From: an uncultured Candidatus Saccharibacteria bacterium
GTDB taxonomy: Bacteria > Patescibacteriota > Minisyncoccia > Portnoybacterales > UBA2143
DNA length: 64,000 nucleotides
NCBI GenBank assembly: GCA_964548405.1
Contig: CAZJPW010000002.1
Location: 17 to 64,016, forward strand
Direction: 5' to 3'
How positions within the stretch are numbered: position 1 is the stretch's first letter; each line of letters opens with the position of its first letter. Of the stretch, positions 2,595 to 64,000 are shown in pieces. The notes below the pieces were generated by a model. The model was not told where the DNA came from. It saw nothing but the letters and a program-made list of their open reading frames with translations, and ran no database searches. A program made the translations under genes and the position numbers.

Positions 2595-2795
2595 TCATTT
2601 TTCGTCAACCTTAATAGCCTCAACAGCACAGATATCAACTGCTTCTTTAGCGCATTGATCATCAGTTTCTCCTTGATCAGTCCCAGTATCTTTAACAATT
2701 GCCTTATTCTCGTCATTCAAATCAAAAAGGTCCGGGCAGATAGCCGAACAACTTCCACAACCAATACAATCTTCTTGATTAATCTTTATTTTCAT
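2595..2795 (-). CDS. Small 4Fe-4S ferredoxin
   Basis: CIGCGSCSAICP plus a second Cys pair (CAKEAVDIC). The 67-aa start is taken at the internal ATG (MKIKINQ...). The track ORF extends to 2825 using a TTG start. Confidence 0.65.
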   Translation of the reverse strand: MKIKINQEDCIGCGSCSAICPDLFDLNDENKAIVKDTGTDQGETDDQCAKEAVDICAVEAIKVDEK

Positions 2796-3636
2796 AACCA
2801 AACAGCTTAATTTTCTCCTCGACAACCTTTTGGACCGCTTCCACTACCGGTGGCATTATCTTATAGGGAGTAACCTTTTTAGGATCATCTTCCAATGATT
2901 TCTTTAAGGCACCTGTGTAGGCTACCCTCAAACTAGTATTAACATTGATTTTAACAATACCCAATTCAATAGCTTTCTCAATATCTTCTTGAGGTGTACC
3001 AGAACTGCCATGAAGCACTAAATTAACATTATCACCCACTGTTTTACTAATTTCTTCCAGTCTATCCAGAAACAAATGAGGATTCTGACCTGATTTAGAA
3101 ATACCATGAATATTACCAATAGCAATAGCTAAACTATCTAGGCCGGTTTGTTCAATAAACTCCTTGGCCTGATTGGCATCAGTTAAATCTTCAGATTTAA
3201 TTTCTATTGCTTCATGAATAGTTGAACCGCCTCTTAAATATCCTAATTCCCCCTCAACATTACTAATTCCTTTTTCTTTGGCTAATTCCACTACCTGCCT
3301 AGTAACTTTAACATTCTCTTCAAAGTCTAGAGCAGAACCGTCAAAATGGACTGAATCATATCCCGCCTCAATCGCTTGTTCAATGATTTCTAAAGATTTA
3401 CCATGATCCATATGTAAAATCAAATCTAAACCCGTCTCTTCCTTATACACATCAATTAACGATCTTAATTGTTTTTTACCGATAAAATCGCTTTCACCCT
3501 GAGAAGTAGAAATTAGAACTGGGCTTTTTAAATTCTGGGCTGCTAAAACTATAGCTTTAAGCTGTTCTAAATTAGAAACATTAAAAGCTCCTATGGCATA
3601 CTTATTCTCTTTTGCTTTTTTAAAAATGTCTAACAT
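2779..3636 (-). CDS. fba: Class II fructose-bisphosphate aldolase
   Basis: Motifs AIGAFNV, LHMDHGKS and VLHGSSG are typical of class II FBA/tagatose-bisphosphate aldolase. Confidence 0.85.
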   Translation of the reverse strand: MLDIFKKAKENKYAIGAFNVSNLEQLKAIVLAAQNLKSPVLISTSQGESDFIGKKQLRSLIDVYKEETGLDLILHMDHGKSLEIIEQAIEAGYDSVHFDGSALDFEENVKVTRQVVELAKEKGISNVEGELGYLRGGSTIHEAIEIKSEDLTDANQAKEFIEQTGLDSLAIAIGNIHGISKSGQNPHLFLDRLEEISKTVGDNVNLVLHGSSGTPQEDIEKAIELGIVKINVNTSLRVAYTGALKKSLEDDPKKVTPYKIMPPVVEAVQKVVEEKIKLFGYENKD

Positions 3637-4888: not shown

Positions 4889-5874
4889 ATCTTCTCTTTC
4901 TTAACCTCCACTTTCTGCCAAGGACCCCATTGGCCCTTTTTCAATAAACCATTGGCGGCCCCCATTTTCTGCAAAACAGAAGTTGCATTAGCGGTAGCTA
5001 ATTGAATCGCATGGACAATATCTTCTTTTTCCATATATCCAGCCAAAAAAGCAGAAGTAAAGGCATCACCTGACCCTGTCCGATCAACCAAGTCTGATTC
5101 AGGAATACCAGCTGAATAACGATACTTTTTATCAGAAACAATTACTCCTTTAGGGCCTTTGGTTATAACAACAATACCATTGACCCACTCTTCAAGTTTT
5201 TTAAGCATTTCATCCTGATGTTCAAAATCTACCTGAGTTAATCTAGCTGCTTCTTCCTGATTAACAATTAAAATATTAATTTTATCCAATAAATTACGAG
5301 TTCTTTCTAATCCTTCACCTAACTGGCTCTGACCGACTGGACTAGCTAATATCTTAATCTTATTCTCAACTGCAAAATCAACTAATTTATCTAAAACCTT
5401 ATAGGCCTGGCCTGATAAAGAACCAGCGTAAATCCACTTGGCATCAATCTTACCAAAAGGAATGTCTTGATCAGTCATCTGATGACAAGCGCCTAATTTT
5501 TTTAAAATACTCCGACCAATTTCAGGTATCGAAAGAATCACTGAAAAGGCAGTTGGATAATTGTCCGTTTCTATTAATAGGTCAGGAGAAACTCCTTGAG
5601 CAGATAATTCATCTCTAACTGTTTTTCCAAACAAATCCTTACCGATTAAGCCAAGATAAGCAACTTTTAATTCCTGACGGGCAAAAGTTACAGCTGCATT
5701 AGTCCCACAACCACCCATCGCAAAATATGTATCCTTGATCTTCATTTTAGACCCTAAAGGAATACCCAAACCTTTCTTGGTAATAAACCGGTCGCTTTCA
5801 ATCACTTGAAAATCAGGACTACTCATAAAAATATCCTGAGTGGCTGAACCTAATGTAATTACATCATACTTCAT
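4885..5874 (-). CDS. PfkB-family carbohydrate/sugar-phosphate kinase (ribokinase-like)
   Basis: PfkB signatures: GGCGTNAAV near the N-terminus and GSGDAFTSAFLAGY near the C-terminus. Confidence 0.8.
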   Translation of the reverse strand: MKYDVITLGSATQDIFMSSPDFQVIESDRFITKKGLGIPLGSKMKIKDTYFAMGGCGTNAAVTFARQELKVAYLGLIGKDLFGKTVRDELSAQGVSPDLLIETDNYPTAFSVILSIPEIGRSILKKLGACHQMTDQDIPFGKIDAKWIYAGSLSGQAYKVLDKLVDFAVENKIKILASPVGQSQLGEGLERTRNLLDKINILIVNQEEAARLTQVDFEHQDEMLKKLEEWVNGIVVITKGPKGVIVSDKKYRYSAGIPESDLVDRTGSGDAFTSAFLAGYMEKEDIVHAIQLATANATSVLQKMGAANGLLKKGQWGPWQKVEVKKEKI

Positions 5875-9737: not shown

Positions 9738-9992
9738 CTATTCCTTAATATCTAATAATTGATTAATCTTTGGCTTATCAAAGCCAATAATAATCTGACC
9801 ATCTATATCTGTCACGGGCACGCCCATTTGACCTGATTTATCAATCATTTCCTTAGATGCTTCTTGGTTCTCTCCTACGTCAATATCTTCGTATTTAACG
9901 CCTTTTTCGTCCAAATATGCTTTTAAGGTAACGCAATAAGGACAGGTTTTGGTGGAAAAAACGCGAACTTGATGCTTTTTTTCTTGAGTCAT
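9738..9992 (-). CDS. Glutaredoxin/NrdH-like redoxin
   Basis: 84 aa with a CPYC active site and a thioredoxin-fold length. Overlaps trxB by 4 nt. Confidence 0.7.
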   Translation of the reverse strand: MTQEKKHQVRVFSTKTCPYCVTLKAYLDEKGVKYEDIDVGENQEASKEMIDKSGQMGVPVTDIDGQIIIGFDKPKINQLLDIKE

Positions 9993-10906
9993 ATTTCTAA
10001 ATTTTTTAGGTAATCATAAGCGTTTAAGGCTGCCTTGGCTCCCTCTCCAGCGGCAATAACAACTTGCTTATGAGATACATCTGTCACATCGCCGGCCGCA
10101 AATATATTGGGCTGAGATGTCTGATTTTTCGAATCGACTTTTATTTCCCCCTGTTCATTTAATTTTACCACATCTTTAACAAAAGAGGAATTAGCTAAAG
10201 AACCAATCGCTAAGAAAATACCTTGAACTGGCAATTCTTTGTTTTTTCCTTTAGTACCATTGCTGTAAACCAAACCACTAACAAACTTATCGCCTTTTAC
10301 CTCAACAACCTTGGCACTAGTCACCACCTCTATTTTATCAATTTTCCCAATCTTTTCCTGGAGAAACTCATCAGCCTGTAATTGCGGAGTAGTTTCCAAG
10401 ATATATATTTTGGAGGCATATTCAGCTAATTCTAAAGCAGTACCTAAACCAGCATTGGCTCCACCAATCACAGCCACTGCCCTATTTCGGAATAAAGGCG
10501 CGTCGCAAGTAGCGCAGTGACTAACGCCCTTACCAAAAAACTCTTCTTCGCCCGGTACGCCCAGCCTACGGGCAACCCGGCCGGTGGTTATAAGAGCGGT
10601 TTTAGTTTGATATCTCTGGTCATTTACCTTAATTTCCAATTCTGAATCATTTATCACTTTAACTTCTTCAACTTTTAGATTCTCTTTAATCTCAATCTCA
10701 TTTTTCTTTAAATGCTCTGTAAATTTATTAACCAAGTCCATCCCTGTAATATTAGCAAAGCCCGGATAATTCTGAATTAAAGGAGCATAACTCATTTGCC
10801 CACCCCAGTCTTTAGTAATTAAAAGCGCCTTTAACTTTTTCCTAGCTACGTAAATACCGGCACTAACAGAAGCCGGTCCTCCACCAACGATTATTAAATC
10901 ATACAT
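9989..10906 (-). CDS. trxB: Thioredoxin-disulfide reductase
   Basis: IVGGGPA FAD motif, CATCD redox-active disulfide and a second GGANAG NADPH motif. Confidence 0.85.
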   Translation of the reverse strand: MYDLIIVGGGPASVSAGIYVARKKLKALLITKDWGGQMSYAPLIQNYPGFANITGMDLVNKFTEHLKKNEIEIKENLKVEEVKVINDSELEIKVNDQRYQTKTALITTGRVARRLGVPGEEEFFGKGVSHCATCDAPLFRNRAVAVIGGANAGLGTALELAEYASKIYILETTPQLQADEFLQEKIGKIDKIEVVTSAKVVEVKGDKFVSGLVYSNGTKGKNKELPVQGIFLAIGSLANSSFVKDVVKLNEQGEIKVDSKNQTSQPNIFAAGDVTDVSHKQVVIAAGEGAKAALNAYDYLKNLEI

Positions 10907-10913
10907 AGTTTTA

Positions 10914-11672
10914 TTATATATTAGCTAATTGAATACTTTCCAAGGTATATTTTCTTAAATTGGATATCTGCCAATCAGTTAAGACCTCACAGGCAAAACC
11001 CCAATGCATTGAAATCCAATCATCTATCTCAGGTTTTTTAATAAATCCCTCATCCCCAATCTTATAACCCACCTTCTGTAAAACCGGCTGGCCTAAAGAT
11101 AGCTTATCTCCATCAGAAACCAAAGGATGATATTCCACTTCTAAAGATGATTTCTTAGTTTTTTTAACCTGGCCCCAGCCAATCCGACATAAATCCATAG
11201 CATTCAAAGTTTGAATTGAATCAATATTATCAGCTTGCTTCCAAACACTTAAAACATGAAAATTATGATGAGCCCTGGCCCCTAAAGTAATTTTCTCTTT
11301 AATCCTATTAATGATTGGTTTAGATAATTTCTTTTTAATCTGAGATTTATCAACTAAATGATTATACAATCCTGACTTAGTAATATTTTCTAAAAGAGAA
11401 TTACCAATCCAATAGGCCTCAACCACCTTTTCGCTAAAAGGATCCTTAATTTGATTATGATGAGCAATCATCTTTAAATACGGATAAAGCGTTTGAAATT
11501 CTTCTAGAATCTGAATCATGCCCTGATCTGCCTTCTGATTCCGACAATAATCAAAAAGATCTTGGTTTTTATCGGGACCGCAAAAAGTCAAATGATTAGG
11601 CATAAAAGCATATCGCCCGCATTGAATAATACCTTTAAAATCGAATTGTGGCAACTGATTTGTTTTTAACAT
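10914..11672 (-). CDS. Hypothetical protein
   Basis: ORF with no recognised motif. The 5' end overlaps the upstream DMT gene by 38 nt, so the true start is probably an internal Met (MPNHL...). Confidence 0.4.
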   Translation of the reverse strand: MLKTNQLPQFDFKGIIQCGRYAFMPNHLTFCGPDKNQDLFDYCRNQKADQGMIQILEEFQTLYPYLKMIAHHNQIKDPFSEKVVEAYWIGNSLLENITKSGLYNHLVDKSQIKKKLSKPIINRIKEKITLGARAHHNFHVLSVWKQADNIDSIQTLNAMDLCRIGWGQVKKTKKSSLEVEYHPLVSDGDKLSLGQPVLQKVGYKIGDEGFIKKPEIDDWISMHWGFACEVLTDWQISNLRKYTLESIQLANI

Positions 11673-27265: not shown

Positions 27266-27499
27266 ATGGGATTTGAAGAAATAAAAATTACTCCAGGAGG
27301 CGATCCAGAACAAAAGAAAACCGACCAATTAGCTCAAGAAGGTATAGAGAAACGCGGAGATATACCAGCTGGCGATATGGACAGCATCAATCAGCCAGAT
27401 CCAGAACAAGTTGAAAAAGCCGAACAAGGACTAAAAGAAGTACTGGAAGGCGTAAAAAAAATGGAAGACAACGGAGTTATCGTAGATATTGAAAAATAG
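27266..27499 (+). CDS. Hypothetical small acidic protein (77 aa)
   Basis: Strong RBS AGGAGGG and an acidic composition. One of very few plus-strand genes. Confidence 0.5.
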   Translation: MGFEEIKITPGGDPEQKKTDQLAQEGIEKRGDIPAGDMDSINQPDPEQVEKAEQGLKEVLEGVKKMEDNGVIVDIEK

Positions 27500-28005: not shown

Positions 28006-28386
28006 TTACGGGTCAGGGTGCGACTTAATGAGATGCAACCCGGCACCTCTCCAAGCAGACCGTTTCCTCTGAATAATCCGAACCGGTCTTCTGTCTACCA
28101 GGGGAGTATATTCTCCGGAATAGGCCTGGATAAATCCAGCATCCTCATCTACCGGTATTCGCGCCTCTTTTAATACAGTAACAAAGAGACAGGCGAAATA
28201 TCTGGTTCTTTCTTTCCTTTCGCCTTTTGAGGAAGCCGGCCCCAACTTCTCCTGAAATTTCTGAAAAATTTTATAAAAAGAGCCGGCTGGATGATTAGGA
28301 TCATAACTCAATCCTTTTTTTCTTGGTTTCGTAGTCCTTAGAACAGCTTCCCGAAATTCACCCTCGAATTTTTCCCATTCTTTCAT
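28006..28386 (-). CDS. Hypothetical protein, compositionally atypical (GC-rich)
   Basis: 126-aa ORF with local GC about 45-50% against about 33% background. It has its own consensus promoter and RBS AGGAGG 9 nt upstream. No recognised motif. Confidence 0.5.
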   Translation of the reverse strand: MKEWEKFEGEFREAVLRTTKPRKKGLSYDPNHPAGSFYKIFQKFQEKLGPASSKGERKERTRYFACLFVTVLKEARIPVDEDAGFIQAYSGEYTPLVDRRPVRIIQRKRSAWRGAGLHLIKSHPDP

Positions 28387-28481: not shown

Positions 28482-28510
28482 ATGATAACAGAAAAATAAC
28501 TATTTGTCAA
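28482..28510 (-). promoter_or_regulatory. Near-consensus sigma70 promoter TTGACA-N17-TATCAT driving gene 28006..28386
   Basis: On the minus strand: TTGACAAATAGTTATTTTTCTGTTATCAT, about 95 nt upstream of the ATG. The -35 element abuts the upstream terminator hairpin. Confidence 0.5.
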
Positions 28511-33518: not shown

Positions 33519-34973
33519 TTAATACGCCTTAGCGAAAATAACTCTTTGATTCGACTCTCCTCCACAAAAAATACACTTCCCTTTTTCTTTTTTCTGATCA
33601 AAAGGAATACAACGAATAGTTGCCTTTGTTTCTTCTTTAATCTTAGCCTCACACTTCTCGTTATTACACCAATAAGCTTCAATAAATCCACCTTTACCTT
33701 TAATTATCTTCTTAAATTCATCCCAATCATTAACCCTATAAGTATTTTCTTTTTGAAACTTCTTGGCCTTATTAAACATTTTATCTTGAATATCATATAA
33801 TACTTTATTAATAAATTTTACATTTATCTTTTCTTCATCCATTACAGCCTTATTATCCGTATCTCTTCTAATAACAAGAATATTCTTATCTTTAACTTCA
33901 GCTGGACCTATTTCTAATCTAATTGGAACACCTTTCTTCTCCCATTCAAAAAACTTAGGACCTGGACGCATATCTCTCTTATCCACTTTAACTCTAATAT
34001 CTTTATTAATCTTATTCGCTATTTCATCAGCTTTCCCTATAACTTGATCCTTCTCTTCATCTGAATTCCAAATAGGAATAATTACAACTTGAGTCGGCGC
34101 TATTTCAGGAGGCAAAACTAAACCCTGATCATCACTATGAGCCATAATCAGAGCGCCGATGATTCGAGTACTTAATCCCCAACTGGTCTGCCAAGGAGTG
34201 TGTTTTTTCTCATCTTTGCCCAAAAACTCAATATTAAAAGCCTTAGCAAAACTTTGACCAAGCATATGGGAAGTTCCTGACTGCAAAGCTTTCTTGTCCT
34301 GCATCATTGCTTCAATAGTATAAGTACGATCAGCCCCAGCAAACCTTTCTGATTCAGATTTAATCCCAGAAATCACTGGAATAGCTAAATATCTTTCTAC
34401 TAAATTCTGATAAACATCTAACATTTGTTTAGTTCTCTTTTCGGCCCCCTTTTCAGTCTCATGAACTGTATGCCCCTCTTGCCATAAGAATTCTGTAGTC
34501 CTTAAAAATAAACGAGGACGCATTTCCCAACGGACTATATTAGCCCATTGATTAATCAATAAAGGTAAATCGCGATAGGAATTAATCCATTTTGAAAAGG
34601 CATCATACATGATTGTTTCTGAAGTCGGCCGGACAACTAATGGTTCATCTAGTTTTTTACCCCCTGCATGAGTAACCACTGCGCATTCCGGTGAAAATCC
34701 CTCTACATGTTCAGCTTCTTTAGATAAAAAACTCTGCGGGATAAAAAGAGGAAAATATGCATTTTCTACCCCAGTCTCCTTTATCTTTCCATCTAAAACT
34801 TTTTGGATATTTTCCCAAATAGCGTAACCATAAGGCTTAATTATCATACAGCCTTTGACTGACGAATGTTCAGCCAGGTCAGCCGCTGAAATCACATCCA
34901 AATACCATTGTGAATAATCTTTTTCACGACTGGTAATCTTTTTTTCTTTAAATTTTTCTTCTTTGTTTTTCAT
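33519..34973 (-). CDS. proS: Prolyl-tRNA synthetase, archaeal/eukaryote-like class II form
   Basis: Class II motifs, no bacterial insertion domain, and a C-terminal zinc-binding extension (CxxC...CxxC, ends ...VIFAKAY). The start is chosen at the internal ATG (MKNKEEKF); the track ORF begins 20 codons earlier. Confidence 0.8.
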   Translation of the reverse strand: MKNKEEKFKEKKITSREKDYSQWYLDVISAADLAEHSSVKGCMIIKPYGYAIWENIQKVLDGKIKETGVENAYFPLFIPQSFLSKEAEHVEGFSPECAVVTHAGGKKLDEPLVVRPTSETIMYDAFSKWINSYRDLPLLINQWANIVRWEMRPRLFLRTTEFLWQEGHTVHETEKGAEKRTKQMLDVYQNLVERYLAIPVISGIKSESERFAGADRTYTIEAMMQDKKALQSGTSHMLGQSFAKAFNIEFLGKDEKKHTPWQTSWGLSTRIIGALIMAHSDDQGLVLPPEIAPTQVVIIPIWNSDEEKDQVIGKADEIANKINKDIRVKVDKRDMRPGPKFFEWEKKGVPIRLEIGPAEVKDKNILVIRRDTDNKAVMDEEKINVKFINKVLYDIQDKMFNKAKKFQKENTYRVNDWDEFKKIIKGKGGFIEAYWCNNEKCEAKIKEETKATIRCIPFDQKKEKGKCIFCGGESNQRVIFAKAY

Positions 34974-35223
34974 ATACATTAATCTTATCATAAAAAAAAT
35001 AGAGGAGCAATATATATAAAGACTCCGGTCCAACGATGGCCCGGAGTCGATTTCGTAGCGTTTCTAAGATTACAGTTTTCCTGCAATTTCTTCTTCAATC
35101 GCCTTCACTGTCGGTTCAATATTTTTAAGACAGTGTTGACTGAAGGGAGTTATATTGACACTCCCTCCTGTGCCCCCATCTTTACGACGGAACCCACGAA
35201 CATGGGTTAAAGAATTAAAAAAA

Positions 35224-35245
35224 GAATAACACCTATACGTTATTC
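35224..35245 (-). terminator. Intrinsic terminator after rseP (GAATAAC...GTTATTC stem plus U7)
   Basis: On the minus strand: GAATAACGTATAGGTGTTATTC followed by TTTTTTTAATTC. It lies 29 nt after the rseP stop. Confidence 0.65.
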
Positions 35246-35273
35246 TGTCAAATACATCCAGAGTAAATACTGC

Positions 35274-45250: not shown

Positions 45251-45601
45251 TTACTTAACTAATTCAATAATAGCCATTTTGGCGCTATCTGTTTTGCGCG
45301 GACCCAATTTAGTAATCCTAGTATATCCGCCTGGCCTGGCTTGGTAACGAGGCCCTATTTCCGCAATCATCTTTTTTAATATCTTAGCTGGAAGGTATCT
45401 TGCTAAATATCTAGTATTAGCTAAATTATTGGTCCTGCTTTTAGTAATCAACTTTTCCACAAAAGGACGAACTTCCTTAGCTTTGGCTTCAGTAGTAGTA
45501 ACCTTTTCTTTTAATAGTAAGTTAGCGGCCAAGATTTTCAAAAGAGCCTTCCGCTGATCCTTATTACGACCAAATTTTCTTAATTTATTACCGTGCTTCA
45601 T
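45251..45601 (-). CDS. rplQ: 50S ribosomal protein L17
   Basis: MKHGNKLRKFGRNKDQRKAL... typical L17 N-terminus. Confidence 0.9.
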   Translation of the reverse strand: MKHGNKLRKFGRNKDQRKALLKILAANLLLKEKVTTTEAKAKEVRPFVEKLITKSRTNNLANTRYLARYLPAKILKKMIAEIGPRYQARPGGYTRITKLGPRKTDSAKMAIIELVK

Positions 45602-48220: not shown

Positions 48221-48445
48221 TTACTTTCCTCGATAAGTGATCCTTCCTTTAGTATTATCATAAGGACTCATTTCAACCTTAACTTGATCGCCGACCAAAA
48301 CACGAATATGATGCAAACGCATCTTTCCCGAAAGCTTAGCTAATACTTCACTCTGATCATCCAACTTTACCTTAAACATTAGGCTAGGCAAAGCCTCAAT
48401 AACCACCCCTTCCTGGGTAATTTTTTTTTCTTTGAGTTTAATCAC
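48221..48445 (-). CDS. infA: Translation initiation factor IF-1
   Basis: 74 aa with an S1-like OB fold; [17 protein letters not shown]... Confidence 0.9.
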
Positions 48446-53549: not shown

Positions 53550-55256
53550 TTACTCTACTTCCTTGTTATAGCACTTCTGACAGTATACTATTTCTTTTCG
53601 CTCTGGGGAATAGGTTGTTTGGAATTTAACATTACATCCTTTGTTCATACACTGCCTTTGCCACAACCTCAAAGGATTTCTAAATCTAGACCTTTCTTTT
53701 CTTCTGCAATACATACAAGTTCTAGGCAAGGGTAAATTATGTTTTTTGTAAAAATCTAATTCTCTGGACACAATTTGAAAAACACCTGAACCGTCACAAT
53801 CACTCCCATTCTGACATCTAATTACTTGTTTTAAAATACTTTTATCTACATCATTAATATGATCTGGTAGTTTTTCTGATTTAATTGTTGCTTTGTATTC
53901 TGGCTTAGGCCGATCATACCAAGTATATCCTTTAGCTAAAGCCTGTTTTTTAGTCAAAGGAAAATATACCTGAGCTGGCGTATCATGATAACTAAAGCGG
54001 GACATTTCAAGAGGGAAAAAATCTCCATACTGATAAACTCTTTTCTTTTTATCAATGTATGGCATATCGTTCATTTGCTGCTTAATCTTCTTAATCATTT
54101 CTTTGTATTCTTGTTTGGAATATTGTTTATTAAAAATACAGTATTCTTTATGACGCAAACCAATACAGCCAAATATGTCATGGCAGTTATAGCATTCTAT
54201 GGAATAGGCAGTATCATAGCAATTATCTAAATTGCCTGAACAAACAAGATTACGACAACTAGTAGTAAAATCCGCTTCGTAAAGCAATTCTGATTTTGTT
54301 CCTCCAGCATTAACATCATAACTATCTTTAATATTCAACCCAGACATATGGATAAATTTACAATCTTCTGCTCCTTGATAAACACCAAAACATCTATAGC
54401 AGTTTTTACTTCCGTTAACATAGTCTCCAATAATACCAACTGATTTAATTATCTTAGCCCAAGGTTTGGGAAATTTTAAATTAAATCTCTCAAACTTCCT
54501 TATTAACTTCTGTACTGTCTCATAGCTTCCCAAATCATATTTCTTGATTTCCTTTAAATATTCTGCTTTGGAATATGCTTCGTTAAAGATGTGATACTTC
54601 TTGTTTCCCAAATTAACGCAGCCGAAACAGCTTTGGCAGTTACGGCAATCGTACAAAAAAGACGAATCCATACAATTATTACAAAAAGCGCTGAAAAACA
54701 AACGATAGGAATTATCACAATCAAAACACTCATAGATCCGTTCTCCTCCAATAATCATAGTTGAATCCATGGAATCTTTAGTCATGCCAGGACCATGAAG
54801 ATACAAACAGCTTTCTGAAGCAATTCCACCATGAGACATATAGCAGTTTTTGCTTTGAATTAAGTTAGTACAATACTCACAATCAACCGAATTAATCAAT
54901 CTTAAGTTATGCCAAGGAACTTGCTTCATTAACCGATTAAACTGTTCAAAGAATGTTTTCTTAAAATCATACTCCTTTCCATAATCCATTGGATCCCACT
55001 TATCTGACCACCAGATCTTTTGATCATAAACCTTGTATGATGTTTTAGGGTTATAGCCGCTGATCAATTCCTTGCCAGTAAAATCACATTTATCTTTGTA
55101 TAATCTATCAATACTCCTAACAGCCAATCTTCTAATTAAACGACACTCCGGACACCAGGTTGGTTCTGGTACATCTATCTTTTTATAAAATTCAAAATCT
55201 TCTGGTTCTATCACAAACTTAGATTTACAATTTTGGCAAGTTTCAGTTTTTTTCAT
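53550..55256 (-). CDS. Cysteine-rich bookend zinc-ribbon paralogue 1 (568 aa)
   Basis: N-terminal CQNCKSKFVIEPEDFEFYKKIDVPEPTWCPECR and a homologous C-terminal module. Internal CxxCxxCxxC and duplicated LFGC..KKYxIFNKxYSKxEY units. The member of the tandem family nearest alaS. Confidence 0.6.
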   Translation of the reverse strand: MKKTETCQNCKSKFVIEPEDFEFYKKIDVPEPTWCPECRLIRRLAVRSIDRLYKDKCDFTGKELISGYNPKTSYKVYDQKIWWSDKWDPMDYGKEYDFKKTFFEQFNRLMKQVPWHNLRLINSVDCEYCTNLIQSKNCYMSHGGIASESCLYLHGPGMTKDSMDSTMIIGGERIYECFDCDNSYRLFFSAFCNNCMDSSFLYDCRNCQSCFGCVNLGNKKYHIFNEAYSKAEYLKEIKKYDLGSYETVQKLIRKFERFNLKFPKPWAKIIKSVGIIGDYVNGSKNCYRCFGVYQGAEDCKFIHMSGLNIKDSYDVNAGGTKSELLYEADFTTSCRNLVCSGNLDNCYDTAYSIECYNCHDIFGCIGLRHKEYCIFNKQYSKQEYKEMIKKIKQQMNDMPYIDKKKRVYQYGDFFPLEMSRFSYHDTPAQVYFPLTKKQALAKGYTWYDRPKPEYKATIKSEKLPDHINDVDKSILKQVIRCQNGSDCDGSGVFQIVSRELDFYKKHNLPLPRTCMYCRRKERSRFRNPLRLWQRQCMNKGCNVKFQTTYSPERKEIVYCQKCYNKEVE

Positions 55257-56606: not shown

Positions 56607-58340
56607 TTATTCTACTTCTTTATTATAACATTTTTCACAATAAACTACTTCTTTCCTATCTAGGGAATAGGTTGTTTGGAATTTGGTATTGCAACCTTTT
56701 TTCATACATTGACGTTCCCAAAGTTTAATCGTACTTCTTTGTTGAATCCTTTCCTGATGTCTACATTCTGGACACAGACGAGGCAAAGCTAAACCATATT
56801 TTTGATAAAACTTAAGCTCGTTAGGAATAATTTTAAAAACACCCGAACCAGCACAATCAGAATTCTGGCATTCAATTGTTTCTTTTAAAATACTTACATC
56901 TATATCTTTGATATAATCTGATAAATCTTTAGATTTAATAGTTGTCTCGTAATTTGACTTTTCTTCTCTATACCAATTATATCCTTGTTTTGAAGCCTGT
57001 TCCTTATTTAAAGGAAAATATCTTTGAACTATAGATTCGTTGTATCCAAAACGAGAAAGTTCAATCGGAAAATATTCTCCATACTTATATTCTCTTCCCT
57101 TTTTATCAAGATACGGCATTTGATCCATCTGCTTCTTAATCTTTCCCACTATTTCAAAATACTCCTCTTTTGAGTATTGCTTATTTAAAATACAATATTT
57201 CTTTTTTCTCAAAGAAACACAGCCAAACAAATCTGAAGAACCATGACAGCCTTCTGAATAAAATACATCTCTGCTTGTCCAAACAGCATTGTCAAAAAAC
57301 ATTCGATCGCATCTTTCAACAACACAAACTGATTCATAGGCTCGAGTCACAAAATACCCTGTATCATAGACATCATAAGAATCTTTAAGTCCCCAGCCAG
57401 TAATTAATACATATTTAGAATCTTCTGTCCCTTTATCTCCATTGAAGCAATATTGACAGTTTTTGGAATTAGCCATATCATCGCCAACCACATTAACTGC
57501 TTTTTCGATTCTGGCAAATTTGCGTGGAAATTTAATATGGAAATCCTTAAATCTTTTTTCAACATCCAAAATCGTCTTATGACTACCTAAATCATACTTT
57601 TCCATTTCCTTTTCATATTCTGTCTTGGAATATGCTTTGTTGAATATGTGATACTTTTTGTTTCTCAAATTAACACAACCAAAACAATCGTGGCAATTAC
57701 GACAATTATACAAAAAAGCTGAATTATGACATTCTAGGCAATCCCAACTAAAAAAGAGTTTATAGCATTTTGAACAACCAACACAAAAATAGCAAAGTTC
57801 ATCATTGACTGCCTTATACATATCCATACAATCCTTGTTTTCTCCAGACCAAGTTGTATAGGAACAATTTTCTGACATTCCGCCCAAGAATACTAAATAG
57901 CAGTCTTTGGTCTGAGTCATATCATGACAATAATCGCTATTCTCCGAATTAGTATTTAAAAGATTAACTACTGGCGTATCTTTCTGTAATTGATAAAACT
58001 GCTCAAAAAATGATTTGTTAGAATCATATTCTCTTCCATATTCCATAGGGTCCCAATTATCTGACCACCAGCATTTATTACAATAAACCTTAAATGGCTT
58101 ATCCGGAGAGTAAATCGTGACCATAGATTTACTACATAGATCACATTTTCTTTTGTATAGCTTTCTTTCATTCCAAGAAGCTAATCTTCGCTGCATGCGG
58201 CATTGAGGACAAAAGGTAGGCTCCGGCACATCTATCTTTTTATAGAATTTCTTATCTTCTGATTCAATATTAAATTCAATTTTACAGTTTTGACAGATTT
58301 TTGTTTTAAAATCCATTATTCTATCTCCTTTTGATAACAC
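56607..58340 (-). CDS. Cysteine-rich bookend zinc-ribbon paralogue 2 (577 aa)
   Basis: Same architecture and conserved termini as paralogue 1. The central region diverges. Confidence 0.6.
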   Translation of the reverse strand: MLSKGDRIMDFKTKICQNCKIEFNIESEDKKFYKKIDVPEPTFCPQCRMQRRLASWNERKLYKRKCDLCSKSMVTIYSPDKPFKVYCNKCWWSDNWDPMEYGREYDSNKSFFEQFYQLQKDTPVVNLLNTNSENSDYCHDMTQTKDCYLVFLGGMSENCSYTTWSGENKDCMDMYKAVNDELCYFCVGCSKCYKLFFSWDCLECHNSAFLYNCRNCHDCFGCVNLRNKKYHIFNKAYSKTEYEKEMEKYDLGSHKTILDVEKRFKDFHIKFPRKFARIEKAVNVVGDDMANSKNCQYCFNGDKGTEDSKYVLITGWGLKDSYDVYDTGYFVTRAYESVCVVERCDRMFFDNAVWTSRDVFYSEGCHGSSDLFGCVSLRKKKYCILNKQYSKEEYFEIVGKIKKQMDQMPYLDKKGREYKYGEYFPIELSRFGYNESIVQRYFPLNKEQASKQGYNWYREEKSNYETTIKSKDLSDYIKDIDVSILKETIECQNSDCAGSGVFKIIPNELKFYQKYGLALPRLCPECRHQERIQQRSTIKLWERQCMKKGCNTKFQTTYSLDRKEVVYCEKCYNKEVE

Positions 58341-60034
58341 TTCTCACAATATACAATTTCTTTTCTATCTGGGGAATAAGTTGTTTGGAATTTAGTATTA
58401 CAGCCTTTTTTCATACATTGTCTGTTGTATAATTTCATTGGATTTCTCAATTTAATTCTATCCTGATGCCTGCATTCATGACATAATCTTGGAATAGGAA
58501 TGCCTTGTTTTTTATAAAACTTATACTCTCCTGGAATTAATCTGAATACTTTAGTCCCCTGACAATCTTTATTTTCACATTCTACTACCTCTTTTAATAT
58601 TTTATCATCTACATCCTTAATATCATCTGGAATGTCTTGAGCTTTAATTGTCGCCTTATACTCTGCCTCCGACTTACCATACCAATTAAATCCTTGTTCC
58701 TTAGCTTTATCTTCAGAAAGAGGGAAATATTCATTAGCTATGGTTTCATTATATCCAAAAGGACTTAATTCAGCTGGGAAAAACTCTCCGTATTTATATA
58801 CCCTCCCTTTTTTATCAACATATGGCATCTCATCCATATGTTTTTTAATTTTAGGAACTAATTCTTCATATTCTTTTTTAGTATATTGCTTGTTTAAAAT
58901 ACAATATTTTTTATGACGCAATCCAACACAACCAAAAAGATGATGAGAATTATTTGAACCAATAGTATATTCCATATCATACAAATTAATCATATGATCT
59001 TTAACACTCTTAGGTATATTCAGCCAACAAAATTTAGTTTGATACCCTCCACTTTCTTCAAGTTCATAACAAAGTTCGCCACCAGCAATAGCTATGTCAT
59101 AACATTCTTTACTAGGCATAAAAAGAATCATTTGACAGTAAGAACAATCTTCTAAATCTCTATTAATGAACGAATTTTGAACATTTTTACAATTGTTTAA
59201 GTAGTCTCCAGATACATCAATGCTTTTTCGACTATGCATAAACTTATTTGGAAATTTCATTTGGAATTCTTTAGCTTTTTTTTCTAAAGCTAAAATACTT
59301 TTATATGAACCAAGATTAAATTCTTTTAATTTTTCTTCATATTCTTTCTTAGAATAGGCTTTATTAAATATATGGTATTTTTTATGCCTTAAATTAACAC
59401 AGCCAAAACAATTCTGGCAATTAACTAAATTCTTAGAAAACCAAACATTAGAACATTCGTGACAATCAGTTGAAAAAAATACTTGATAACATTTAGCGCA
59501 ATCAAATAGGTTATATGAAAGTTCCACATCATTTACTTTAACCAAATCGTAGCTATCTAAAGACCCCGTAGTATCAATCGCATAAGCCACATTTTCAGAC
59601 ATGCCCGTATTAAAAACTAAATAACAGTTTTTAATATGACCTGTATTATTAGTAAAAGGACTATTAACCGAATCTAATTCAAATTTATGAGGAAATCCGA
59701 CTTGATGCAATAATTCTTCAATTTGTTTAAGAAGTGGCTTATTAAAATCATATTCCTTTCCATATTTCATAGCATCCATTTTATCAGACCACCAATATTT
59801 TCCATCATAAACTTTAAAAGGAAACTTAGGTGAAATACAGGCAAAAACCTCCTTATCAAGCCCTTCTACTTTTCTCTTGTAAAGAATCCGGCCACTTCTA
59901 AAAGCCAGTCGCCTTTGACTACGACAGCCAGGACACCAAGTTGGCTCCGGCGCATCTATCTTATGATAAAAATCACTATCCTCCGGAAAGATAGTGAATT
60001 CTTCATGACAGCTTTGACACTTCTTTTTTTTCAT
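58316..60034 (-). CDS. Cysteine-rich bookend zinc-ribbon paralogue 3 (572 aa)
   Basis: Same architecture. Overlaps paralogue 2 by 25 nt. Confidence 0.6.
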   Translation of the reverse strand: MKKKKCQSCHEEFTIFPEDSDFYHKIDAPEPTWCPGCRSQRRLAFRSGRILYKRKVEGLDKEVFACISPKFPFKVYDGKYWWSDKMDAMKYGKEYDFNKPLLKQIEELLHQVGFPHKFELDSVNSPFTNNTGHIKNCYLVFNTGMSENVAYAIDTTGSLDSYDLVKVNDVELSYNLFDCAKCYQVFFSTDCHECSNVWFSKNLVNCQNCFGCVNLRHKKYHIFNKAYSKKEYEEKLKEFNLGSYKSILALEKKAKEFQMKFPNKFMHSRKSIDVSGDYLNNCKNVQNSFINRDLEDCSYCQMILFMPSKECYDIAIAGGELCYELEESGGYQTKFCWLNIPKSVKDHMINLYDMEYTIGSNNSHHLFGCVGLRHKKYCILNKQYTKKEYEELVPKIKKHMDEMPYVDKKGRVYKYGEFFPAELSPFGYNETIANEYFPLSEDKAKEQGFNWYGKSEAEYKATIKAQDIPDDIKDVDDKILKEVVECENKDCQGTKVFRLIPGEYKFYKKQGIPIPRLCHECRHQDRIKLRNPMKLYNRQCMKKGCNTKFQTTYSPDRKEIVYCEKCYQKEIE

Positions 60035-60039
60035 AAATA

Positions 60040-61458
60040 TTAAACTAATGGTTCAGGATCTTTATCTTCTTCTTTAGATTTTTCAACTTTACCAGTTTTT
60101 TTAACCATTTCCTCTTCTTCTAATTTCTTTTTAACTTCTGCCAAAGGAAGAGCATATTTTTCTCTGCTTTGCTTAATAATTTCATCTTTAAACGATTTAT
60201 GATTAGGTGATAAAACTTTTAAGGTTTCAGCAGAAAAAGGATCAAAAGTTTCTCCATCAATAGTCATTTTAATGTAAAATTCTTGAATACCTAAATTAAT
60301 CATATCTTCAGCTCCAAAAACAGGTGTCATTTCTACAGCCATTCTAGCAGCATCATCTCCGCCAATTCTAAAAGTAACCATTGTTCCAATATTTCCTAAA
60401 ACTGTAGCTAAAACTCTTTCTAATAACTGAGCAATATATTGATGAGCGACAGTAATACATAACCCATATTTCCTTGATTCAGCAAATAGGTTTTCAAAAG
60501 TAGTCGTAACTAAGTTTTGAAACTCATCTACATAAAGATAGAAATCTTCCCTATCTTGTTCAGGCATTGAAGCTCTAGCCATACCAGCTTGATAAAGTTT
60601 AGTAATAAACATAGAGCCAAAGAAACTACTATTCTCTTCACCCAACTTTCCTTTAGAAAGAGAAATTAAAAGAATTTTCTTCTGATTCATAATTTCTTCT
60701 AAATCAATCTTATTTTCCTTCTGTCCAAAAATATTTCTTAACAAAGGATTAGATAGAAACTGACTTAACTTATTAACTAAAGGAATAATAGCTTCAGTAT
60801 CAAACTTTTCTGACCAATCAGCAAATTCAACTGCCCAGAATCTCTTAACCATATCATCTTCAATATAGTCAATTACTTTTTGACGATAATTCCTATCTGT
60901 TAAAATTTGAATCATACCTCTCATAGTTGCCTCTGGGTAATCAAGTAAAGCCAAAGTAGTAAATCTAAAAACATGTTCTAAGCGTGGCGTCCAGTTAGCT
61001 CCAAATTGTTTTTGTAAAACTTCTAATAAGCCTTGGGTAACCTGATGTTTTAAATCAGGGTCAATATTTGATAAAGGATTAAAAGAAATTGGAAAATCTG
61101 TATCCGAAGGATCTATAACAATAACATCATTAATTCTTTCTTTAGGAATAAATTTTAAAACATCTTCGATGAAATCTCCATGAGGATCAATTAAACAAAC
61201 TCCATGGCCATAAGCAATATCTTGACGGATAATTAATTCCATTAATTTACTTTTACCAACTCCACTTTTACCAACCATATACAAGTGCCTTCTGCGATCT
61301 GCTCTTTTCATACCAAAAATGAACTTCTTTTCTTCCAAAGCAGCTTCGTAATTAGTTCTTCCAAAAAAAGAACACTCTTCAGGATTAACTTTGCCGTAAA
61401 CAGGTAATTCTGGAGGAGGAGGCGCATATTTAATTTTACGAATTGTTCCTCTAGCCAT
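60040..61458 (-). CDS. P-loop NTPase of the HerA/FtsK/VirD4-coupling-protein type (DUF87-like)
   Basis: Walker A MVGKSGVGKS, Walker B LYVDEFQN and a downstream VAHQYIAQL motif typical of TraD/VirD4/HerA ATPases. K/E-rich C-terminal tail. Confidence 0.6.
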   Translation of the reverse strand: MARGTIRKIKYAPPPPELPVYGKVNPEECSFFGRTNYEAALEEKKFIFGMKRADRRRHLYMVGKSGVGKSKLMELIIRQDIAYGHGVCLIDPHGDFIEDVLKFIPKERINDVIVIDPSDTDFPISFNPLSNIDPDLKHQVTQGLLEVLQKQFGANWTPRLEHVFRFTTLALLDYPEATMRGMIQILTDRNYRQKVIDYIEDDMVKRFWAVEFADWSEKFDTEAIIPLVNKLSQFLSNPLLRNIFGQKENKIDLEEIMNQKKILLISLSKGKLGEENSSFFGSMFITKLYQAGMARASMPEQDREDFYLYVDEFQNLVTTTFENLFAESRKYGLCITVAHQYIAQLLERVLATVLGNIGTMVTFRIGGDDAARMAVEMTPVFGAEDMINLGIQEFYIKMTIDGETFDPFSAETLKVLSPNHKSFKDEIIKQSREKYALPLAEVKKKLEEEEMVKKTGKVEKSKEEDKDPEPLV

Positions 61459-61515: not shown

Positions 61516-63228
61516 TTACCCTATTTCTTTGTTATAGCACTTTTCGCAGTAAATAATTTCCTTTCTCTCTGGAGAATAGGTTGTTTGGAATTTAACATTA
61601 CAACCTTCTTTCATGCATTGACGCTCCCATAATTCAAGAGGATTTCTTTGCTTAATGCGCTCAGTATAACGACAATTAGGACATAATCTAGGTAAAGATA
61701 AGTCATTCTTTTTTAGAAAATCATATTCTTGAGGAATAATCCGATATACGCCCGAACCAATACAATGATCATTAGCGCATTTTATTACTTCCTTTAAAAT
61801 TGATTTATCAATACTATCTACATCATCCGGTAAATCTAAAGCATTAATAGTAGGGCGATACTCTGATTTTAAATTTTTATACCAATTATATCCCTTCTCT
61901 TCAATTTGTTTTTTTGTTAATGGAAAATATTCACCGGCTATAGTCTTGTTATAACTAAAAACAGAAAATTCTATTGGAAAGAATTCTCCATATTTATAAA
62001 TTCTTCCTTTTTTATCTTTATAAGGCATATCATTCATATGCTGTTTAATTTTTGGAATTAATTCCTCATATTCCTTCTTGGTATATTGTTTGTTTAAAAT
62101 ACAATGCTTTTTATGCTTTAATCCAATACAACCAAAAAGATTGGATGAACTAAAACAACTATCTGAATATTCTATATTGTAGACATTTTCTAAAATATTT
62201 ATCGAAAATTTAATTTTACTAAGATTAATCCCGGCCGTAACACTTTCGTAAATCAAATTCGCTTTGTCTCCTCCATCAAAAATATCATAGCTATCTTTTA
62301 ATTTCTTACCACCAGCCCAAATATACTTACAGTTTTCCGCGCCGCCCTCTAAAAGATAAAAGGAATAATGACAATTTTTGGAATCTTTAATATCATTACC
62401 AGAAACATTAATTGAATTGTATATACGTGCGTATCTCCGCGGAAAGCCTATCTTAAATTCTTCGAATTTACTTTTTACCTTTTCAAAATTAATATAACTA
62501 TTAAGCCCGTATTTCTCTAACTCTTTTTGATATTCTTTTTTAGAATAGGGCTTATTAAAAATATGATATTTTTTGTGTCTTAAGTTAACACAGCCAAAAC
62601 AATTCTGGCAATTCTTGCAGTCATACAAAAAAGCAGAATCAATGCAATAATCGGAATGCTGACTAAAATAGACATTATAATTTCTATCGCAAAAAATATT
62701 TTCGTAGCATTTTTCACTCTTAATCAGCCAAAAATTATCAAAACAATTTTTAGAATCCCCAACTACTGAATAAGCACAATTTTCAGAATTATTGCCGGTG
62801 CATAAATAACAGTCCTTACAATTGTACGCTCCGGCACAATAATCACAGTTAACCGAACTTTTATTGTAATTATGAGGCCTTGGTATAGCTAATCTTAATT
62901 CTTTAAATTGTTCAAAAAAAGATTTACTAAAATCATACTCCCTTCCATATTCCATAGGATCCCATTTATCCGACCACCAAATCTTTTGATCATAGACTTT
63001 ATAAGGGCTATCTGGATGATAAATAGAAATTATTTCCTTACCTGAGAAATCACATTTTCTTTTATAAAGTTCTAAAAGATTCCAATGAACCATCCGTCTT
63101 TGCATTCTACAATCAGGACAAAAAGTAGGTTCTGGCACATCTATTTTTTTATAAAACTCAAAATCTTCTGGTTCAATAACGAACTTTGATTTACAATTTT
63201 GACATTGTTTTGTTTTAGATTCATCCAT
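61516..63228 (-). CDS. Cysteine-rich bookend zinc-ribbon paralogue 4 (570 aa)
   Basis: Same architecture as paralogues 1-3. Confidence 0.6.
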   Translation of the reverse strand: MDESKTKQCQNCKSKFVIEPEDFEFYKKIDVPEPTFCPDCRMQRRMVHWNLLELYKRKCDFSGKEIISIYHPDSPYKVYDQKIWWSDKWDPMEYGREYDFSKSFFEQFKELRLAIPRPHNYNKSSVNCDYCAGAYNCKDCYLCTGNNSENCAYSVVGDSKNCFDNFWLIKSEKCYENIFCDRNYNVYFSQHSDYCIDSAFLYDCKNCQNCFGCVNLRHKKYHIFNKPYSKKEYQKELEKYGLNSYINFEKVKSKFEEFKIGFPRRYARIYNSINVSGNDIKDSKNCHYSFYLLEGGAENCKYIWAGGKKLKDSYDIFDGGDKANLIYESVTAGINLSKIKFSINILENVYNIEYSDSCFSSSNLFGCIGLKHKKHCILNKQYTKKEYEELIPKIKQHMNDMPYKDKKGRIYKYGEFFPIEFSVFSYNKTIAGEYFPLTKKQIEEKGYNWYKNLKSEYRPTINALDLPDDVDSIDKSILKEVIKCANDHCIGSGVYRIIPQEYDFLKKNDLSLPRLCPNCRYTERIKQRNPLELWERQCMKEGCNVKFQTTYSPERKEIIYCEKCYNKEIG

Positions 63229-63299
63229 ATATTGACTTGGATTTCTAATATGAAGTATAATATTGATAGTACTAAATTACAATGAGAGGGGGATATATC

Positions 63300-63458
63300 A
63301 TGGCACCGGAAAAAATACCTTACGAACTTCCAGCAATTGCTTTCACACTGGAAGACCTTCCATCTCAGACTGCTGCCTGGGGAGGTGGATCAATTTTTCT
63401 ACCTGAATCTGGCGGAGTCTCTCGACCCAAACTCAAAGACAAAACCATCGAAAAATAA
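63300..63458 (+). CDS. Candidate 52-aa micro-protein (MAPEKIPYELPAIAFTLEDLPSQTAAWGGGSIFLPESGGVSRPKLKDKTIEK), GC-rich, opposite strand
   Basis: Hand-translated. RBS GAGGGGG about 7 nt upstream of the ATG and an intrinsic terminator 20 nt downstream. Local GC about 47% against about 33%. Absent from the track because it is under 60 aa. Confidence 0.35.
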   Translation: MAPEKIPYELPAIAFTLEDLPSQTAAWGGGSIFLPESGGVSRPKLKDKTIEK

Positions 63459-63478
63459 TTCTCGATGAACTGTCGCTA

Positions 63479-63521
63479 CCGCTCTTGTGGATACTGAATT
63501 CGCACGAGCGGTATTTTTATT
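63479..63521 (+). terminator. Intrinsic terminator after the micro-ORF (CCGCTCTTGTG...CACGAGCGG hairpin plus TATTTTTATT)
   Basis: A stem of about 9 bp with one mismatch, read directly, followed by a T-tract. Confidence 0.5.
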
Positions 63522-63525
63522 CTCT

Positions 63526-64000
63526 TTATTCTACTTCTTTTTGATAACATTTTTCGCAATATATAATTTCTTTCCTATCTGGAGCATAGCTTGTTTGAAA
63601 TTTAACATCACAACCCTTTTTCATACATTGTCTTTCCCATAACTTTATTGGGTTTCTTTTACTTAATCTTTCTTTATATCGACAATCTGGACAAATTCTT
63701 GACAAAGGCAAATTCATTTTTTTGTAAAACCGATACTCTGACTCAATTATTCTAAAAACTCCAGAACTCTGACAAACACTACCTTCATTACCACACTCTA
63801 TAATCTCTTTCAAAATAGAACTATCTGTATCTTTGATATTATCTGGTAAATTCTCTACTTTAATAGTCGGCTTATGTTCTAATTTAGGACGATCAAGCCA
63901 AGTATATCCCTGTTCTAAAGCCTGCTCCTTTGTTAAAGGAAAGAATTCTTGATTAATAGTTTCGTTGTAGGCAAAAGGACTAAATTCAGCTGGATAAAAC
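63526..64000 (-). CDS. Cysteine-rich bookend zinc-ribbon paralogue 5 (3' part; gene runs off the window edge)
   Basis: The C-terminal module is highly similar to paralogues 1-4 (...CQKEVE). Hand translation shows the frame stays open from 63813 to 64000 (...YFPLTKEQALEQGYTWLDRPKLEHKPTIKVENLPDNIKDTDSSILKE...). The track start at 63813 is only an internal TTG. Confidence 0.6.
   Translation of the reverse strand, partial: FYPAEFSPFAYNETINQEFFPLTKEQALEQGYTWLDRPKLEHKPTIKVENLPDNIKDTDSSILKEIIECGNEGSVCQSSGVFRIIESEYRFYKKMNLPLSRICPDCRYKERLSKRNPIKLWERQCMKKGCDVKFQTSYAPDRKEIIYCEKCYQKEVE

Follow-up and report, generated by a model that had tools for sequence, protein, structure and literature searches.

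The question raised by this locus is what is encoded in the spacer between paralogues 4 and 5 of an array of zinc-finger genes in an uncultured bacterium of the Patescibacteria (CPR). The remaining gaps of the array measure 2-57 nt, and the 297-nt spacer is the exception. An earlier note on this DNA had proposed that the spacer carries a GC-rich micro-gene, antisense to all its neighbours, whose product could be either a small protein or a structured RNA. As proposed, the micro-unit lies on the plus strand and both flanking paralogues lie on the minus strand. The features of the locus are collected in Table 1; positions are those of the window, by which we mean the whole stretch of 64,000 nt that was analysed.

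Table 1. Features of the spacer between paralogues 4 and 5 and of its borders; functional assignments of the signals are predictions
Feature	Position	Strand	Description
Paralogue 4	61516-63228	-	570-aa Cys-rich protein with treble-clef zinc fingers; divergent neighbour of the micro-unit
Intergenic spacer	63229-63525		297 nt, between two co-oriented minus-strand paralogues
Sigma-70-type promoter	63232-63261	+	TTGACT (63232-63237), 18-nt spacer, TATAAT (63256-63261); 11/12 matches
Weaker promoter-like site	63254-63282	-	TTGTAA-17-TATACT; 9/12 matches
Putative 5′ leader, about 32 nt	63268-63299	+	Holds SD-like GAGGGGG (63286-63292), 7 nt before the ATG
52-codon ORF and TAA	63300-63458	+	TAA at 63456-63458; preceded by GAGGGGG-N7
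Terminator-like hairpin and T-run	63435-63468	-	Stem-loop 63468-63445, then TTTTGTCTTT; 10-bp stem with 3 G-C pairs, 4-nt loop
Intrinsic terminator	63477-63521	+	Hairpin 63477-63513 (8 + 7 bp, 5-nt loop), then TTTTTATT
Paralogue 5, 3′ part	63526-64000	-	Convergent neighbour of the micro-unit; runs off the window

Pfam annotation of ten neighbouring proteins revealed Cys-rich proteins with treble-clef zinc fingers at both ends, and further a TrwB/VirD4-like ATPase and a sodium:solute symporter. The AF2 model of paralogue 4 was confident (pTM 0.85), and Foldseek comparison with the PDB gave no match. The relatives of this protein number thousands, all of them, by record title, from Patescibacteria. 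Paralogue 5 is complete in the longer source contig L001 (10245-11951) and is 568 aa long. In a survey of Patescibacteria 5,713 VirD4-type coupling-protein homologues were counted in 2,918 genomes, only 148 of them near virB4 (PMC12102498). Because there is no virB4 among the annotated neighbours, the ATPase of the array fits the description of VirD4-type homologues in that survey (PMC12102498).

The spacer has the appearance of an ordinary convergent/divergent gene junction that encloses a small and independent unit on the plus strand. At the left border of this unit the predicted promoter conforms to the sigma-70-type definition (TTGACA/TATAAT, 16-18 nt apart), a consensus that may not be the one used by CPR sigma factors. 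Sites with 11 or more of the 12 matches number only three in 128 kb, that is, on both strands of the 64-kb window, and one of the other two precedes a gene with a strong SD. The near-consensus promoter had been absent from the earlier description of the spacer. With the usual 7-nt distance after the -10 box, transcription would start at about 63268.

At the right border the plus-strand hairpin and the T-run that follows it qualify, as a stable hairpin with a U-tract, for a predicted intrinsic (Rho-independent) terminator. The hairpin has a calculated dG of -20.9 kcal/mol (z -4.9), and no other hairpin plus T-run of the window is as strong, the rest being -15.4 kcal/mol or weaker. The combination is directional, with a T-run on the plus strand only and none after the hairpin on the minus strand, and it is present in a single copy within the window. 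A hairpin and T-tract 20 nt after the stop codon had been described before; the structure is there, but it starts 18 nt after the stop. The unit ends 5 nt before the stop codon of paralogue 5 and overlaps neither coding sequence. Because a near-consensus promoter is combined with the window's strongest terminator, we judge it credible that a self-contained transcription unit of about 250 nt runs on the plus strand from about 63268 to about 63520. The promoter, 39 nt 5′ of the ATG, and the very strong terminator after the stop both strengthen the earlier proposal of an independent opposite-strand unit.

The spacer also contains putative signals for its neighbours on the minus strand. The weaker promoter-like site is so placed that it could drive paralogue 4, and the terminator-like hairpin would be in position to end the transcription of paralogue 5. 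These elements interlock with those of the plus strand: the two -10 boxes overlap at 63254-63261, the stop codon of the micro-ORF sits within the loop of the minus-strand hairpin, and the body of the plus-strand unit is complementary to any minus-strand read-through from paralogue 5.

Such a spacer might be a non-functional remnant or a plain intergenic region, in which the plus-strand signals are fortuitous or are leftovers of a decayed foreign insertion, and in which the real content consists of minus-strand signals, the terminator of paralogue 5 and the promoter of paralogue 4. We consider this unlikely. AT-rich genomes do yield promoter-like hexamers, and at the level of 9 of 12 matches six sites were found in a 1.2-kb stretch against 4.3 expected. 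The rarity of the 11/12 promoter in the window speaks against chance, however, and it is correctly spaced and oriented relative to the SD, the ATG, the ORF and the strongest terminator, a joint arrangement that is hard to obtain fortuitously.

The interlocking of the signals on the two strands agrees with another interpretation, in which the product, about 250 nt long, is a non-coding small RNA that carries the ORF incidentally and acts in cis as an antisense RNA. It is a close rival of the reading that we prefer (see below), possible but on the whole doubtful. The same strong promoter and terminator support the transcript. In this model the promoter, which overlaps the -10 region of divergent paralogue 4 back to back, would compete with it, and expression of the small RNA would uncouple or dampen the downstream half of the array by transcriptional interference or duplex formation. 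With its overlapping -10 boxes and its complementarity to read-through, the geometry of the locus allows cis-antisense regulation.

Direct reading confirmed the GAGGGGG-N7-ATG arrangement and the 52-codon ORF without Cys that had been reported from the letters. A start codon with an RBS at a distance of 5-10 nt and an open frame are present, as would be expected of a small gene. Of all ATGs in the window, only 2.5% have an SD-like 5-mer in front of them. An SD-like motif precedes approximately 13 of the 59 large genes (about 22%), and because so few carry it, an SD is not required for genes here. The ORF takes up 159 of the roughly 210 nt between the presumed transcription start and the terminator. 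The longest-ORF version, which is also that of the gene callers, is 58 aa long and starts at 63282, with an in-frame ATG that lacks an SD.

The statistical indicators of coding gave a divided answer. We used dinucleotide shuffles of the spacer as the null for ORF length. An ATG ORF of at least 52 codons occurred with P 0.14, so that the length alone is not significant and could be explained by chance, as both the small-RNA and the remnant interpretations would have it. All three plus-strand frames of the spacer are fairly open. In the ORF, the GC content by codon position is 0.585/0.472/0.302, whereas the mean of the genes of the window is 0.43/0.33/0.26; the pattern has the order and the GC3 level of the window's genes, and the shuffle p for GC1-GC3 was 0.002. 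By codon log-odds the frame of the ORF was the best of the six (0.055 versus -0.08 to -0.49). The score lies between those of real genes (0.278 +/- 0.113) and of spurious ORFs (-0.112 +/- 0.169). About 12% of the spurious class scored as high as the micro-ORF, a figure that overstates the chance rate because the class includes several probable real small genes.

The choice between synonymous codons pointed in the opposite direction. The synonymous codon score of the ORF was -0.092, compared with 0.21 +/- 0.10 in 52-codon windows of real genes, of which 0.6% were as low. When the same peptide was encoded under genome usage, p was 0.0002. All five Leu codons are CTN, whereas the genome uses TTR for 71% of its leucines. 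The indicators thus conflict, with period-3 GC, SD and layout on one side and synonymous codon use and ORF length on the other. Synonymous codons that resemble the local base composition and not the usage of the genome are in keeping with a non-coding RNA. That interpretation must, on the other hand, treat the ideally spaced SD, an ORF that nearly fills the transcript and the period-3 GC as coincidences.

The product of the 52-codon ORF would be MAPEKIPYELPAIAFTLEDLPSQTAAWGGGSIFLPESGGVSRPKLKDKTIEK, a Pro/Gly/Ala-rich peptide with a GGG centre, in which the N-terminal half is acidic and the C-terminal tail basic. A tryptic peptide of this predicted product is IPYELPAIAFTLEDLPSQTAAWGGGSIFLPESGGVSR. 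AF2 predicted no secondary structure or fold for the peptide, and no helix (pTM 0.17); on this model the peptide is probably disordered. A type I toxin or membrane small protein was considered and rejected: the sequence offers no hydrophobic transmembrane segment, any hydrophobic stretch being shorter than 15 residues, and AF2 placed no helix in it.

The composition of the peptide bears a superficial likeness to a RiPP precursor of the lasso or double-glycine type, which would be processed by the products of neighbouring genes: the N-terminal half is acidic, the centre is GGG, and a Glu follows the Gly run after 8-9 residues. Among all the interpretations considered this is the one to which we give the least credence. 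According to Pfam there is no lasso cyclase, protease, radical-SAM enzyme, LanM or peptidase-ABC transporter among the ten neighbours, and the peptide matched no precursor family. The residues before the GG do not fit what we take to be the double-glycine leader consensus, nor is there a Thr at -2, which we assume for a lasso leader.

We searched widely for relatives of the peptide. A word-indexed protein search covering 5.8 billion clusters found nothing but the ORF itself (P0001), which NCBI, JGI, ENA and Logan record as a 58-aa 'hypothetical protein'. A complete HMMER search of 1.84 billion representatives returned only three unrelated giant repeat proteins; these matches are at chance level, because repeats inflate the E-values and the best single repeat scored 27 bits at the scale of the database. 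Altogether, about 15 billion proteins contained no relative of the peptide. For the ORF there was no match in Pfam, PHROGs, NCBIfam or PADLOC, and the other two plus-strand frames had no significant match in PHROGs and NCBIfam. The absence of any protein homologue and of a predicted fold would be natural for a small RNA with an incidental ORF. The proposal that the ORF encodes a protein therefore stands in part: SD, layout and codon-position GC fit it, whereas synonymous codon use and the lack of a homologue and of a predicted structure do not.

The search was extended to DNA. In 74 genome loci with paralogues, neither the spacer nor the peptide was matched by blastn, tblastn or nhmmer, and blastn and tblastx against five loci of the nearest relatives gave no match either; for all related loci together (79-85) no homologue of spacer or peptide was found. 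The TBLASTN comparison with related genomes that had been suggested for the peptide thus returned nothing from these loci. Phage and plasmid collections, a viral contig scan and two metagenome scans contained nothing similar. Six source contigs were identical to the window over up to 10.9 kb, without polymorphism. The samples of origin are JGI 3300009105, 3300009320, 3300009311 and 3300009314, ENA ERZ23499057 and run SRR8062331. Having no relative, the unit is an ordinary lineage-specific orphan.

No terminal inverted repeats, target duplications or second copy of the terminator were found in the window, and a mobile element was accordingly rejected.

Next to the peptide, the high GC content of the spacer had been put forward as a possible hallmark of a structured RNA. 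Between 63290 and 63521 the GC content is 0.448 and peaks at 0.47-0.48 in windows of 150-160 nt, compared with 0.353 in the window and about 0.335 in the array. The enrichment is therefore as described, but the figures given for it, 47% in a genome of about 33%, were slightly generous. The spacer is within the top 1% of 160-nt windows by GC, and at least 10 places inside ordinary genes are higher. Unconstrained intergenic DNA would be expected to be AT-rich, and the other gaps have a GC content of 0.23-0.36, with one exception of 0.41, which argues against a mere remnant.

Searches for RNA families were negative. Rfam 15 gave no match in the whole window at the gathering score, and in the covariance-model scan of the spacer and its borders (63150-63600) at E up to 10 only snoR77 and CrcZ appeared, both of them junk far below threshold. 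ARAGORN predicted no tRNA or tmRNA gene. The earlier statement that the spacer contains no tRNA, tmRNA, SRP or RNase P motifs was borne out by both tools. The same Rfam models detected tRNAs and a cobalamin riboswitch in related loci. GC-rich spacers were also looked for in relatives, as had been advised, and were rejected as a recurring feature of the arrays. Most of the GC-rich gaps there are tRNAs, which were detected by the same tools, and the few that remain unexplained are unrelated in sequence to the spacer. Because high GC is a working guide to RNA genes in the relatives, whose GC-richest gaps are mostly detectable tRNAs, the negative result for the spacer is meaningful. The same observation can be counted for the small RNA, the GC-rich gaps of the relatives being mostly RNA genes.

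A divergent member of a known RNA family (6S, SRP, RNase P, tmRNA or a riboswitch) that was missed by the models is nearly refuted by these results. Strong promoters and terminators are typical of abundant stable RNAs, and CPR RNAs can be divergent. The models, however, recognized other RNAs in related loci, Rfam and ARAGORN found none here, the related loci contain no homologue, and the folds showed no 6S-type helix closing the 5′ and 3′ ends.

Against shuffles the whole unit folded with a z of -3.9, and this value is due to the terminator hairpin. Without the terminator the body (63268-63472) had a z of -1.64, 10 of 200 shuffles folding as well, which means that it is no more stable than shuffled sequence. 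The reverse strand folds equally well, so that the strand cannot be told from the folding. The SD-like G-run pairs, in the MFE fold, with 63357-63367, a detail that suits a non-coding transcript. The suggestion that the elevated GC reflects a structured non-coding RNA thus gained no support from the Rfam scans, from the stability of the body or from comparison with ordinary genes, in which GC is equal or higher. The possibility that the RNA regulates the array in trans fared no better: in a duplex search, which is a crude method, the start regions of the paralogues were not among the best partners of the transcript.

We also compared the same position in the nearest relatives. The closest relatives of the neighbouring protein have 74%, 73% (partial), 69% and 68% identity, and contigs of three of them were examined: L081 (74%), L085 (73%) and L082 (68%). 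In L081 the gene follows its upstream neighbour after 35 nt and in L082 after 3 nt. In L085 two unrelated genes are found upstream, on the opposite strand, which encode a 138-aa protein and a 111-aa PBECR2 nuclease-like protein. Such a spacer is absent from the nearest relatives, and the unit is, as far as this comparison goes, an insertion specific to this lineage. Since L085 has a different, toxin-like cassette at the same place, this position of the array accepts opposite-strand insertions. The spacer itself had no tblastx similarity to the paralogues or to the L085 cassette, and an origin as a remnant of either was rejected.

Conservation in related genomes had been named as the measure of function; none was found, and measured in this way the proposed function fails. 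This is a weak test, because none of the relatives sampled exceeds 74% identity in the adjacent protein. The lack of conservation, the absence of the spacer from the nearest relatives and the cassette of L085, which demonstrates that the site takes insertions, would all be compatible with a non-functional remnant. Against that, no similarity to any known gene marks the spacer as a fragment of one.

We favour the reading that the product is a small mRNA, recently acquired or young, though we would put it at somewhat less than an even chance. It is preferred because it alone jointly explains the SD, the layout, the period-3 GC, the foreign codons, the orphan status and the relatives without a spacer. 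A recently acquired or young gene is most likely, rather than an old native one, because the synonymous codons are foreign to the host genome. On this reading, the insertion of a plus-strand unit between the two minus-strand paralogues would be confined to this lineage. Transcription by RNA polymerase would begin at about 63268 from the predicted promoter, and the transcript would consist of a 32-nt leader with the SD, the 52-codon ORF and an 18-nt trailer, ending at the intrinsic terminator. Translation from the ATG at 63300 would yield the 52-aa Pro/Gly/Ala-rich peptide. No biochemical function could be assigned to the peptide from the sequence. Nothing suggests an unusual mechanism.

The small mRNA would resemble the orphan sORFs of approximately 50 codons or fewer, lineage-specific and monocistronic units with their own promoter, an SD in a short leader and a Rho-independent terminator behind the short ORF. 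Among the characterised small proteins of bacteria, many possess a transmembrane or amphipathic helix, or Cys residues that bind metal. The peptide encoded here differs in having neither helix nor Cys and in being predicted to be unstructured, and the synonymous codons do not match those of its own genome.

Cis-antisense and divergent small RNAs of the excludon-like type share with the unit the position on the opposite strand in a co-oriented array, strong signals, a promoter that overlaps that of the neighbour and a body complementary to read-through. Unlike them, the unit overlaps neither coding sequence and has a well-placed SD and an ORF. Dual-function small RNAs, exemplified by SgrS/SgrT and RNAIII/hld, are similar in combining a short transcript and a translatable ORF with base-pairing potential, but no base-pairing target was found for the unit described here.

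A more far-reaching interpretation is that the unit is a strongly expressed, lineage-specific regulator of the CPR-specific zinc-finger array, acting either as a cis RNA or through a disordered peptide. We regard this as improbable, and no result of the analysis speaks for it in particular. As an RNA, it may compete with the promoter of paralogue 4 and pair with read-through transcripts, and the array would be split into two separately controlled halves. As a peptide, the disordered product with its basic tail may work with, or be handled by, the TrwB/VirD4-like ATPase.

As it stands, the finding matters little: it is another orphan small transcription unit from a CPR genome that was assembled from metagenomes. 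It illustrates cleanly how coding indicators may disagree, the signature that is expected of a recently acquired or young small gene, and it marks an insertion-accepting position in the zinc-finger paralogue arrays, which are widespread in Patescibacteria and uncharacterised. If it is true that the unit is abundantly expressed, it would provide a handle on the regulation of these arrays.

The array that surrounds the plus-strand micro-gene consists of at least six Cys-rich paralogues, each 560-577 aa long and with treble-clef zinc fingers at the N and the C terminus. The search for relatives of this family returned more than 6,700 proteins at E<=1e-100, and 100% of them came from Patescibacteria (taxon taken from the record title). 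The paralogue core is without a Pfam family and without a sequence relative in the PDB. The AF2 model of the paralogue is confident (pTM 0.85), and a Foldseek comparison of this model with the PDB gave no match.

In the window and in relatives a TrwB/VirD4-like (HerA/FtsK-type) ATPase is encoded inside or adjoining the paralogue arrays. A zf_Tbcl_2 domain occurs in some of these copies; one copy has DUF8128 next to it. No virB4 was seen among the annotated neighbours; according to a survey, the majority of patescibacterial VirD4 homologues sit away from virB4 (PMC12102498).

Coordinates of array members, ATPase genes and small ORFs (L001, longer source contig continuing the window; L053, L081 and L082, loci of relatives)
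Feature	Locus	Position	Strand	Remark
Paralogue	window	53550-55256		array member
Paralogue	window	56607-58340		array member
Paralogue	window	58316-60034		array member
Paralogue	window	61516-63228		array member
Paralogue, 3' part	window	63526-64000		array goes on in L001 10245-13636
TrwB/VirD4-like ATPase	window	60040-61458	-	
TrwB/VirD4-like ATPase	L081	4259-5965		
TrwB/VirD4-like ATPase	L082	1005-4170		
TrwB/VirD4-like ATPase	L053	8908-11658		
Small ORF in long gap	window	2595-2825	-	codon log-odds
Small ORF in long gap	window	9738-9992	-	codon log-odds
Small ORF in long gap	window	27266-27499	+	codon log-odds
Small ORF in long gap	window	45251-45601	-	codon log-odds
Small ORF in long gap	window	48221-48445	-	codon log-odds

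The HMMER search with the micro-peptide matched three repeat proteins (P0122, 2453 aa; P0123, 541 aa; P0124, 1928 aa). The centre of the micro-peptide, LEDLPSQTAAWGGGSIFLPESGGVSRPKL, resembles the repeat 'LP.L..W.GG.I.VP..G...LP.L' of one giant repeat protein, and shows weaker likeness to the two others. Compared with a single repeat the similarity is at chance level; summed over the repeats it gives an E-value of 1.7e-8. A relationship to the repeat proteins was rejected because every single-repeat match was at chance level, and the matches illustrate that whole-sequence E-values are inflated by repeats when the query is short.

Five small ORFs (74-116 aa) in other long gaps of the window have codon log-odds of 0.29-0.35, which is the range of real genes, whereas the value of the micro-ORF is far lower (0.055). 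By this codon statistic the five are probably genuine small genes. When starts were taken as longest-ORF starts, only approximately 13 of the 59 large ORFs of the window were preceded by an SD-like motif at a distance of 6-16 nt. Either initiation is mostly SD-independent, or the longest-ORF calls of many genes begin upstream of the real start codon.

The 240 nt gap 35034-35273, located upstream of a 504-aa gene (33519..35033, start called at TTG), is, at a GC content of 0.41, as GC-rich as the spacer of the micro-gene. It contains small hairpins, e.g. gggagtgtcaatataactccc on the minus strand, and short ORFs, all of <=36 aa. Rfam at gathering score gave no match in this gap, which could be a leader or a small RNA.

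A promoter-like TTGACA-17-TATCAT site (11/12) at 57453-57481 (+) lies within, and antisense to, the paralogue 56607..58340, and could be an antisense promoter or a chance occurrence. The third 11/12 promoter-like site of the window, 28482-28510 (-), is upstream of a 126-aa gene (28006-28386, -), which has a strong SD, ttaggaggaatcttaaATG, and is probably highly expressed.

GC-rich non-tRNA gaps also occur in four related loci: L009 (12342-12607), L024 (10886-11333), L053 (8598-8907) and L068 (810-1218); none of the four shares sequence similarity with the spacer in the window. The L009 gap reaches a GC content of 0.55 (locus, 0.32), had no Rfam match at E<=1, and its folding z-scores were only -1.1 and -2.1. 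The L024 gap contains an 87-aa ORF, and that of L053 is upstream of a 916-aa coupling-protein-like ATPase. L068, a locus of an unclassified MAG with a paralogue of 36% identity, carries a cobalamin riboswitch aptamer at 10819-10962 (+) (49.9 bits).

In L085, from a relative with 73% identity in the paralogue, the place that corresponds to that of the micro-gene is taken by two genes on the opposite strand (5070-5829, -); sequence similarity between this pair and the micro-gene was not found. These two genes look like a toxin-antitoxin cassette, because an uncharacterised 138-aa gene is paired with a 111-aa gene that has a weak PBECR2 nuclease-like match. This position of the array seems to be open to insertions.
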